This document shows positions 25,589-54,530 of a DNA stretch of 64,000 bases, piece by piece. Position 1 is the first letter of the stretch, and each line of letters begins with the position of its first letter. The notes beneath the pieces are model-generated. The model was given only the letters and a program-made list of their open reading frames with translations. It did no database searches and was not told the DNA's origin. This stretch comes from Candidatus Hadarchaeales archaeon (GTDB taxonomy: Archaea; Hadarchaeota; Hadarchaeia; Hadarchaeales; WYZ-LMO6), in NCBI GenBank assembly GCA_038851755.1, contig JAWCKR010000005.1, forward strand, positions 14,409 through 78,408. The letters are read 5' to 3'. The position numbers were made by a program, and so were the translations under genes.

Positions 25589-25846
25589 ATGGAGGAAGTC
25601 AGGAAGCAGCTGAAGAAGATAAGGAACGCGGGAATCCTCATGCTCTCGGCGGGGACTCTCCTGCTCCTCACGGGCGTTCTCCTGCTGAGGGGGGCGGAAA
25701 ACTCGGGAGCGGCCCTCCGGGACTCCTTCCTTTCCTTCCTGGGGGGCTTCATGGCCCTGCTGGGGGCAGGGATCCTCTACCACGTGTGGAAGGCGACACG
25801 GGCGCTTGTGAAAATGGGGTCGGGGACGGGGGGACCCGGTCACTGA
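25589..25846 (+). CDS. Small two-TM membrane protein
   Basis: Two hydrophobic segments. Confidence 0.65.
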   Translation: MEEVRKQLKKIRNAGILMLSAGTLLLLTGVLLLRGAENSGAALRDSFLSFLGGFMALLGAGILYHVWKATRALVKMGSGTGGPGH

Positions 25847-25879
25847 TACCTTTTTATACTGGACCTACAAGAGAGGCGC

Positions 25880-25941
25880 GGATATACCGTCTTCTGGATT
25901 CGTCCGGGAGACCCGAGAAACGCGAGTTTCTTGGTATATCC
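25880..25941 (+). ncRNA. Candidate cis-regulatory three-way-junction RNA in 5' UTR
   Basis: GGATATACC/GGTATATCC closing stem; UUCG- and GNRA-capped hairpins with G-U pairs; TATA ~25 nt upstream. Confidence 0.7.
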
Positions 25942-25969
25942 AACAAAAAAGAAGAAAGGAGGTTAGGAA

Positions 25970-26128
25970 ATGGACATGGGAAGAGGTCCCCGGCGGGGCT
26001 TCAGGCCTAGGGAAATGCACAAGGCCGTGTGCTCCGACTGCGGGAAGGAATGCGAGGTGCCCTTCAAGCCCACGGAGGGCAGGCCCGTCTACTGCAGGGA
26101 CTGCTGGGAAAAGCGCCGCAGGAGATAG
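25970..26128 (+). CDS. CxxC-x17-CxxC domain zinc-binding microprotein (52 aa)
   Basis: Hand translation MDMGRGPRRGFRPREMHKAVCSDCGKECEVPFKPTEGRPVYCRDCWEKRRRR; SD AGGAGGT. Confidence 0.92.
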   Translation: MDMGRGPRRGFRPREMHKAVCSDCGKECEVPFKPTEGRPVYCRDCWEKRRRR

Positions 26129-26184
26129 GCGGAAACGGAGTTGATCCGTTTCCGTGGCCTCTATTTTTTTTCTTTTCACTTTTT
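26129..26184 (+). terminator. Hairpin + T-tract terminator
   Basis: GCGGAAACGGA-GTTGA-TCCGTTTCCGT then T-runs. Confidence 0.75.
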
Positions 26185-26324
26185 GTCAATCCGTTATTTT
26201 GCTGCATCGCGGTTAGCTTTCCATTTTCTTCCACCTCTTTAAGAAACACTACTTTTGGAGATCTTACCCCATCGCCAAGCCCGCTTACTCTCTTTGAGAC
26301 CAGTGGATTCACAAGGCAGGGAGG

Positions 26325-43188: not shown

Positions 43189-43501
43189 GGCGGCGGGCGC
43201 GCCGAAGGTGGACGCCTTCGCCGCGCACCGTTGACCGGCCCCTCAGGCTCCATCCCGCTTTCCGCAAGCGCCGAACGTCCTGCCCACCCTTGCTGACTTC
43301 CGCCCCTGGGGGGTTCAGCAGGCAAGGGAGGTTCTCCCCGGCCCTCCGGTCGGGGCCCCTCCGCCGCCGACCCTGCGGGGCGGGACTTCCGCGCCCGGAA
43401 CCGGGCGGTGCGAGGTTCCAGCGCCGCCCCCCGGCTTCGGCCCGGCGTGTAGCGGATTTCCGGTCACAGGGGACCGCTAGCCCCCCGCCTAGCCCGCCGC
43501 C
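43189..43501 (-). ncRNA. ffs: Archaeal 7S signal recognition particle RNA
   Basis: Paired termini GGCGGCGGGC/GCCCGCCGCC, Alu-domain CTAGGCGGGGGGCTAGCGGTCCCCTGTGACC, helix-8 CCAGG..GGAA..AGCAA, ~313 nt, 3' T-run. Confidence 0.93.
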
Positions 43502-54438: not shown

Positions 54439-54530
54439 AGCCCCGGGCGGGAATTGAACCCGCGACCTCGCGCTCTTCGGTTCCTCGGGGAATACCAAGC
54501 GCGCGCTCTTACCGACTGAGCTACCGGGGC
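54439..54530 (-). tRNA. tRNA-Thr(GGU) with 18-nt intron at 37/38 (54475-54492)
   Basis: GCCCCGG/CCGGGGC acceptor, GCTC/GAGC D stem, CGCGC-TTGGTA[intron]A-GCGCG, TTCAATT T-loop; BHB-like pairing. Confidence 0.93.

Follow-up and report, generated by a model that had tools for sequence, protein, structure and literature searches.

We analysed the 5' leader of a gene for a small basic zinc-ribbon protein in a 64,000-nucleotide (nt) stretch of DNA from an uncultured Candidatus Hadarchaeales archaeon of hot-spring origin (contig JAWCKR010000005.1, positions 14,409 to 78,408 of the forward strand). The whole stretch is called the window, and positions are those of the window. The leader holds a 62-nt three-way junction of the helices P1, P2 and P3 at 25880-25941 on the + strand, and comparison of the sequences of 60 copies confirmed that this RNA structure is real, specific to this strand and conserved in evolution. 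It is probably a cis-acting RNA motif that had not been catalogued before, although its general kind, the structured messenger RNA (mRNA) leader, is known, and probably a new control element for the zinc-ribbon gene; judged by sequence searches, the protein family is already known and the RNA motif appears to be new. The parts of the junction are as follows.

25880-25888, + strand: 5' strand of P1, GGATATACC (RNA GGAUAUACC); read in the sequence and predicted by RNAfold, perfect pairing of 9 base pairs (bp)
25889-25912, + strand: P2 hairpin, GTCTTCTGGA (25889-25898), TTCG (UUCG) loop, TCCGGGAGAC (25903-25912); 10 bp, two of them G-U
25913-25914, + strand: junction J2/3, CC; variable among relatives
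25915-25932, + strand: P3 hairpin, GAGAAAC (25915-25921), GCGA loop, GTTTCTT (25926-25932); 7 bp
25933-25941, + strand: 3' strand of P1, GGTATATCC (RNA GGUAUAUCC); read in the sequence and predicted by RNAfold

Structure and conservation of the leader

RNAfold gave the three-way junction as both the minimum-free-energy and the centroid structure (-33.5 kcal/mol, z -3.52), and 0 of 200 dinucleotide shuffles were as stable as the leader, whereas the opposite strand had a z of -1.50 and 17 of 200 shuffles were as stable. Within the phylum, families and genera carry the anonymous labels f1-f6 and g with a number; f1 is the family of this genome and f2 is a large neighbour. The protein was present in 47 of 61 sampled relatives, and the upstream regions of the fetched Hadarchaeota loci showed the same architecture by eye. 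A covariance model, R1, which was built from 30 leaders with a hand-drawn junction, was applied to 66 Hadarchaeota genomes and detected 60 copies, spread over 47 of them (E <= 0.01). By family, matches were found in 5/5 genomes of f1 as well as the window's genome, in 41/46 of f2, and in 0/1, 0/9, 0/3 and 0/1 of f3, f4, f5 and f6, respectively. As far as it can be detected in sequence, the motif appears to be confined to two Hadarchaeota families. After 1-16 nt, a Shine-Dalgarno (SD) sequence and a complete CxxC-x17-CxxC open reading frame (ORF) followed 58 of the 60 matches; the remaining two are cut by contig ends, and the same ORF begins in both. R1 had no match at this threshold anywhere else in the searched Hadarchaeota genomes, and the window's genome has exactly one. 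Among the 47 genomes positive for the protein, the RNA was present in all except G009, G024 and the doubtful G011, and paralogue-rich genomes carry several leaders (G039 and G030, three each).

The original prediction had named covariation among the 5' untranslated regions (UTRs) of CxxC-x17-CxxC genes as a check, and covarying homologues were found among these 60 copies. RNAalifold recovered P1 from a structure-blind MAFFT alignment, and 7 of its 9 pairs carried compensatory changes. In the 60-sequence model alignment, standard pairs made up 84.8% of the cells, compared with 77.5% in column shuffles and 45-59% with slid partners; 23 of 28 pairs were changed on both sides (shuffle mean 17.7), and 0 of 500 shuffles matched any of five measures. 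This alignment was fitted to the model, and hence each sequence was also folded alone. Folded singly, 60/60 homologues formed two hairpins within a closing stem (median z -4.2; z < -2 in 56/60). The stems were 6-13 bp long in P1, 5-10 bp in P2 and 5-15 bp in P3, and there were 51 distinct P2 and 52 distinct P3 hairpin sequences. G-U/U-G cells exceeded A-C/C-A cells by about 3:1 (223 vs 73), which indicates that selection acts on this RNA strand and not on a DNA palindrome. Together with the difference in z between the two strands, this agrees with the selection at the RNA level that had been proposed from the G-U pairs and tetraloops of the single sequence.

Three pairs of P3 (61/76, 62/75 and 63/74, AAC/GUU) were unchanged in 52-55 of the 60 copies, and the other standard pairs at these positions were G-U, save one G-C. 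P3 thus holds near-invariant AAC/GUU pairs and the GUUUCU tract. In P1, the pairs A7-U95 and A10-U92 were unchanged in 54/60 and 56/60, respectively, amid neighbouring pairs that covary freely. The junction strands and both hairpin loops were variable in length and sequence among relatives. A strain comparison in hot-spring metagenomes (runs X4 and X6, labelled metatranscriptomic but of even coverage everywhere and probably DNA) listed no difference in the unit 25863-26240 at a listing threshold of 10 reads in 100; 6 differences were listed in the 62 nt before it (25801-25862) and 4 in the 58 nt after it (26241-26298). The RNA run X10 yielded one 153-nt contig over the coding sequence (25976-26115) with 4 differences, and the leader was without coverage.

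Several gene copies were missed by R1: L159 (G009:C8), L160 (G024:C36), L161 (G039:C35) and L162 (G040:C37). The G024 copy has a lone hairpin closed by GGAAUGCAA/UUUGUAUUCC, the G040 paralogue retains only the 3' half of P1, and the G039 paralogue L161 has neither a leader nor a basic N-terminal tail. The f5 copy among those that the models miss has a divergent three-way junction (P1 GCACAAC/GUUGUGC, P2 CCCGG/CCGGG, P3 GCAGC/GCUGU) with the SD directly after P1.

Rfam 15 (4227 models) was searched with the window and 20 homologous loci, both at gathering thresholds and by E-value. No match was obtained in the region at gathering thresholds, the best sub-threshold one being SNORD99 (17.5 bits vs 60, E 1.2), and the 20 homologous loci gave one transfer RNA (tRNA) only. 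The literature on the domain, the family, Hadarchaeota RNA motifs and archaeal leaders, taken outside subscription-only papers, yielded no description of the RNA. Both results accord with the earlier view of the element as undescribed. A K-turn, with its tandem G-A pairs and 3-nt bulge, could not be drawn in the leader, no CUGAUGA (the hammerhead core) occurs in 25880-25941, and no Rfam ribozyme matched. H/ACA, C/D and hammerhead readings were rejected, as the boxes or cores are absent and Rfam was negative.

The transcription unit and its product

The remaining features of the unit, all of which the original prediction had pointed out along with the three helices, were confirmed when the sequence was read.

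25851-25858, + strand: TATA box TTTTTATA, read in the sequence; the gene's own promoter
25878-25882, + strand: predicted transcription start, placed by TATA spacing
25942-25956, + strand: A-rich single-stranded linker, read in the sequence; predicted unpaired
25957-25963, + strand: SD AGGAGGU (DNA AGGAGGT), read in the sequence; predicted unpaired
25970 (ATG)-26128, + strand: coding sequence of the 52-residue basic CxxC-x17-CxxC zinc-ribbon protein; ORF, TIGR04272 / PF23477
26129-26155, + strand: 3' hairpin GCGGAAACGGA/TCCGTTTCCGT, 11 bp including one G-U, loop GTTGA (GUUGA in RNA); read in the sequence
26164-26171, + strand: T8 tract, probable archaeal terminator signal; read in the sequence, function from general knowledge

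The host genome is metagenome-assembled (1.25 Mb, 62.5% GC). Upstream of the gene lie a Sir2/CobB-type deacylase gene and an ORF for an 85-residue membrane protein, whose stop codon precedes the TATA box by 5 nt; downstream, the neighbouring gene lies on the opposite strand and encodes a LigD-type phosphoesterase. From this arrangement, the gene is read as a compact unit that has a promoter and a terminator to itself and a predicted monocistronic mRNA with a 90-nt leader. The centre of an archaeal TATA box lies ~26-27 nt upstream of the start. A TATA-like octamer was detectable in 53 relatives, and in 49 of these its start lies 27-30 nt upstream of the first base of P1; given this constant spacing, the transcript probably begins at P1 or a few nt away.

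Of the strong terminator proposed for this gene, the hairpin and T8 are both present. A simple scan for terminators of bacterial type missed the 3' hairpin, as the T-run begins 8 nt past the stem; archaeal transcripts usually terminate at an oligo-T run without a hairpin. In the 1.25-Mb genome, GAAAC-N3-14-GTTTC is found four times only, and two of these sites are P3 of the leader (25917-25930) and the gene's 3' hairpin (26132-26152). The GAAAC...GUUUC copy in the 3' hairpin is kept only in part among relatives of the same genus. The f2 genes carry a conserved 3' UTR element within the first ~70 nt past the stop codon (L009, L012, L013, L022 and other f2 loci), which consists of a small hairpin followed by AUUUUUGGGCUGYU...GGUUAGCGRUAGCU (hairpin GCURYYSYU/AGCGRUAGC). 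In f1, this element is missing, and the hairpin and T8 stand in its place. Elsewhere in the window, a signal recognition particle RNA lies at 43191-43499, in line with the archaeal nature of the window, and a tRNA match at 54439-54530 on the - strand covers 92 nt compared with 71 positions of the model, so that this tRNA gene probably contains an intron.

The encoded protein matched TIGR04272 with 74.6 bits (cut-off 36) and the Pfam family PF23477 (zf_Tbcl_2, 'probable treble clef zinc finger') with 74 bits (cut-off 27), which bears out the zinc-finger assignment made from the cysteine spacing. It is a small basic zinc ribbon with Arg/Gly-rich tails, and its 52 residues include 11 R and 4 K vs 8 D/E. 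The two CxxC pairs, C21-S-D-C24 and C42-R-D-C45, are separated by 17 residues, and their cysteines are invariant in 22 relatives, the alignment of which has a mean column identity of 77%. The family is very widespread in Archaea: at least 598 relatives were confirmed, out of 600 matches listed (one genome per species), and the matches listed include Woese-, Aenigmat-, Micr-, Nano- and Bathyarchaeota, Methanocella, Methanomicrobiales, Methanosarcinales and Methanomassiliicoccales. It also occurs in some bacteria of the candidate phyla radiation (CPR). The protein core is 73-89% identical across archaeal phyla. In an AlphaFold2 model (predicted local distance difference test score 72.2), the protein forms a small zinc knuckle, in which two short strands are accompanied by a helix at the C-terminus. 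Foldseek against the PDB found nothing at E <= 0.001, the weak rows being thymidine-kinase zinc lassos and LIM or RING fingers; the PDB sequence search gave a best E of 0.046, and the ESM Atlas scores were at most 0.84 and serve as leads only. An occurrence of the domain on DEAD-box helicases was not confirmed among the 120 best longer homologues, which were annotated with PF23477 only (with or without PF14599).

For Methanosarcina mazei, a published study reports eight paralogues of the family, the binding of zinc by two of them, A00184 and A01980, as detected with inductively coupled plasma mass spectrometry, and homologues that are abundant and among the most confidently detected small proteins there (PMC12704099). 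Its authors offer a role in transcription as speculation only and describe the function as unknown (PMC12704099). By analogy with these members, the protein described here would bind zinc; the binding of nucleic acids is a putative property of the family.

Possible roles of the leader

The reading that we tentatively favour, as plausible though by no means assured, is that of a leader at the end of the transcript that binds a protein and thereby sets translation or stability, with feedback from the gene's own zinc-ribbon product as the most likely route. The folded junction would serve as a static platform recognised by a protein, and the features recognised would be the junction geometry and the orientation-specific invariant pairs in P3 (AAC/GUU, GUUUCU) and P1 (GGA.AC/GU.UCC). 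Only 1-16 nt separate the end of the junction from the SD, so that a protein bound to it would hinder loading of the 30S subunit or alter decay. The most economical binder would be the gene's own product, giving negative feedback as in ribosomal-protein leaders, and P1, which closes the 5' end of the mRNA, would probably also shield it against 5'-end-dependent decay. The near-invariant pairs of P3 and P1 amid freely covarying neighbours suggest that more than generic stability is selected. The product is basic, its family binds zinc, and the leader is linked exclusively to CxxC-x17-CxxC genes, paralogues included. L161, the only paralogue seen without the leader, is also without the basic N-terminal tail, a single case that fits feedback.

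Several observations weigh against a protein-binding leader. RNA binding is unproven for any member of the protein family. The core of the protein is near-invariant across phyla, yet the leaders in other phyla are unrelated in sequence, which is awkward for RNA recognition by the conserved core. Hairpin loops and junction strands are the usual points of protein contact, and here both are variable. The leader is unlike the 16S and 23S ribosomal RNA (rRNA) of three relatives and thus offers no evidence of target mimicry: with filters off, R1 gave one 8.8-bit match in the 16S and 23S loci of G002, G010 and G013, and this match lay outside the rRNA. The genome G000 is without assembled rRNA, and this comparison is limited to rRNA as the target. 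The invariance of the P1 5' strand could come from DNA-level constraints at the transcription start, and the start itself is a prediction from TATA spacing. As a separate observation on these loci, the 23S rRNA match of G002 (L165, G002:C3:22038-25606) spans 3569 nt vs 2987 positions of the model and scored 2254.9 bits vs ~2800 for the other two, which suggests a large insertion or intron in this rRNA.

The main rival is a constitutive 5'-terminal stabiliser and translation enhancer without a trans factor, which we consider possible but less than probable, and the two are not mutually exclusive. P1 would shield the 5' end from exonucleases, the A-rich linker would keep the SD open and the 3' hairpin would guard the other end, resulting in a long-lived and highly translated mRNA for an abundant protein. 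The position of P1 at the predicted start fits a stem near the 5' end, to the extent that the TATA-to-P1 distance (27-30 nt in 49/53) locates that start, and the SD and linker are open with no alternative conformer. The stability of the stems tracks lineage: the leaders of f1 and of g7, a genus in f2, are predicted to stay folded to ~75-80 C, and the AU-rich f2 leaders are less stable. The hairpin at the 3' end, the modestly elevated structure of the unrelated leaders in other phyla and the confident detection of the homologues in M. mazei (PMC12704099) point the same way. One hairpin would suffice for such a role, yet the three-way architecture is found in 60/60 copies, and a pure structural role fails to explain why three P3 and two P1 pairs are near-invariant in sequence and orientation.

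It is unlikely that the leader is the binding site of a different general RNA-binding factor, or that its 5' fragment has a role in processing or as a trans-acting small RNA. The sequence CUGUUUCU is indeed retained even with a different pairing partner, in g7 lying partly in the junction and P1, and a T6 run in the P3 3' arm of some f2 copies could end a short transcript. However, the motif stands solely upstream of this gene family and has no second copy in the genome, and the covariation of P1 argues that selection sees the full-length leader, including the sequence past the T-rich arm.

A sensor RNA, that is, a riboswitch for zinc or another ligand or a thermometer in which a change of conformation controls translation, seems quite improbable, although three-way junctions are common aptamer folds, the family of the product binds zinc (reported in PMC12704099) and the predicted stability drops steeply from 65 to 85 C. 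The mean unpaired probability in 59 leaders was 0.95 for the linker and 0.82 for the SD, and the SD was predicted to be open in 53 of them. The only plausible competing duplex, in which the P3 3' arm would pair with the linker and SD, was no better than with shuffled linkers (median z +0.35; 0/60 below -1.64), and a switch between these elements was rejected on the basis of the duplex energies. The variable junction strands contain no conserved unpaired nucleotides that could form a pocket, and no Rfam riboswitch or thermometer matched. A classical ligand-sensing riboswitch, which combines a conserved unpaired pocket with mutually exclusive pairing, is disfavoured by these predictions because the SD is open, no competing pairing is seen and the junction nucleotides are unconserved. 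An SD-occluding thermometer is disfavoured as well. In ROSE and fourU elements the SD or start codon lies in a melting helix, whereas here the SD and linker are predicted open and without alternative pairing, and the stems are stronger in the GC-rich hot-spring lineage, which fits a fold that must persist rather than melt. Thus, of the three roles suggested in the original prediction, the thermosensor has lost favour, and autoregulatory and stabilising roles are both possible. Its idea that CC in J2/3 competes with P1 survives in part: branch migration is possible, and the relative L006 folds with a longer P3, but such migration is no conserved feature of the leader.

Chance inverted repeats or a palindromic operator at the DNA level without RNA structure are scarcely credible: P1 is a perfect 9-bp inverted repeat with its 5' strand overlapping the predicted start, but three separate helices covary, G-U exceeds A-C by 3:1, the opposite strand folds no better than shuffles and the fold is kept by 51 P2 and 52 P3 sequences.

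Related leaders and known systems

The closest analogue appears to be the leader of S15 (rpsO) of the Geobacillus/Thermus type, reportedly a static protein-binding operator for feedback control that mimics the 16S rRNA site of S15. Both are three-way junctions in the 5' leader of a gene for a small basic protein, near the ribosome-binding site. In contrast to the S15 leader, the Hadarchaeota leader has no resemblance to 16S or 23S rRNA and no match to a ribosomal-protein leader in Rfam, and RNA binding would be a property only proposed for its protein. In archaea, L7Ae binds a K-turn in its own 5' UTR, and L1 of Methanococcus autoregulates. These systems share with the Hadarchaeota leader a structured archaeal leader and, as far as proposed for Hadarchaeota, control of the mRNA by its own RNA-binding protein, but the Hadarchaeota leader has no K-turn and differs in sequence and fold. 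The leaders of E. coli ompA and B. subtilis aprE are 5'-terminal stabiliser stem-loops, simple hairpins without conserved sequence. They resemble the present leader in a stem a few nt from the 5' end (predicted here) and an accessible SD downstream; the Hadarchaeota leader differs as a conserved three-way junction with invariant pairs, and the archaeal decay enzymes are different. A00184 and A01980 of M. mazei belong to the same family (TIGR04272 / PF23477), are small and have paralogues, and in the main text of that study the words 'UTR' and 'leader' occur 0 times (PMC12704099). The fetched Methanosarcinales loci, however, do not match the Hadarchaeota model.

None of 75 non-Hadarchaeota loci matched R1 or the refined model R2 (best L098, 16.7 and 17.6 bits, respectively, E ~0.5), and on this ground the leaders of other phyla were rejected as homologues of the Hadarchaeota one. 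The upstream regions of these loci hold conserved sequences of their own. Copies from Bathyarchaeia and several DPANN groups (Woese-, Nano- and Aenigmatarchaeota) have in common a leader ~60-100 nt upstream of the gene with the form (A/G)GUAUAC - hairpin - GUAUAAC(U/C)A, or (A/G)GUAUAC ... GUAUAACUA (L067, L077, L079, L087, L089, L090, L094, L095, L099, L116, L127, L139). It contains a bulged A as well as an inner hairpin that varies and in many cases includes ACUUCU, and shows little covariation because its stem is nearly invariant. Methanomicrobiales have a short 5'-terminal hairpin, GCAG-loop-CUGCAUGAG (UGCAG-loop-CUGCAUGAGUAAUACAAUG), which starts at the expected transcript start, and Methanomassiliicoccales have a third type, a longer leader with UUCGCUGGUGUCCUA...GUCAGGC...UUUAGG (loci of these two orders: L085, L092, L103, L109, L115, L120, L128, L130, L132, L135, L136, L140; L100, L108, L133). 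The upstream regions in other phyla had a median z of -0.80 vs -0.17 in controls (paired Wilcoxon p ~5e-4, with relatives that are not independent), and 11 of 72 had z < -2 vs 6 and 4 in the controls, a tendency only towards modestly more predicted structure. A purine-first AGAAA...UUUCU hairpin shared with other phyla was rejected, as 7 were purine-first vs 14 pyrimidine-first, compared with 6 vs 11 in the controls.

To our knowledge, cis-acting mRNA structures have rarely been described in archaea, and hardly ever outside cultured models. The comparative support for the Hadarchaeota leader is unusually clean, as it comes from 60 copies, from covariation in three helices and from exclusive linkage with a single gene family. 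The leader is attached to a family that is near-universally conserved across archaeal phyla and, according to the M. mazei study, abundant in that organism and of enigmatic function (PMC12704099). It provides a handle on this function, as it predicts an RNA partner for the protein. The unrelated leaders on the same family elsewhere suggest that these proteins are in general under tight post-transcriptional control. A wider reading, which we regard as doubtful, is that the CxxC-x17-CxxC zinc-ribbon microproteins form a pan-archaeal class of RNA-binding proteins, shared with CPR bacteria, in which each lineage has its own 5'-terminal operator RNA. If this is true, it would represent a widespread form of post-transcriptional feedback in archaea, comparable to that by the ribosomal-protein leaders of bacteria.

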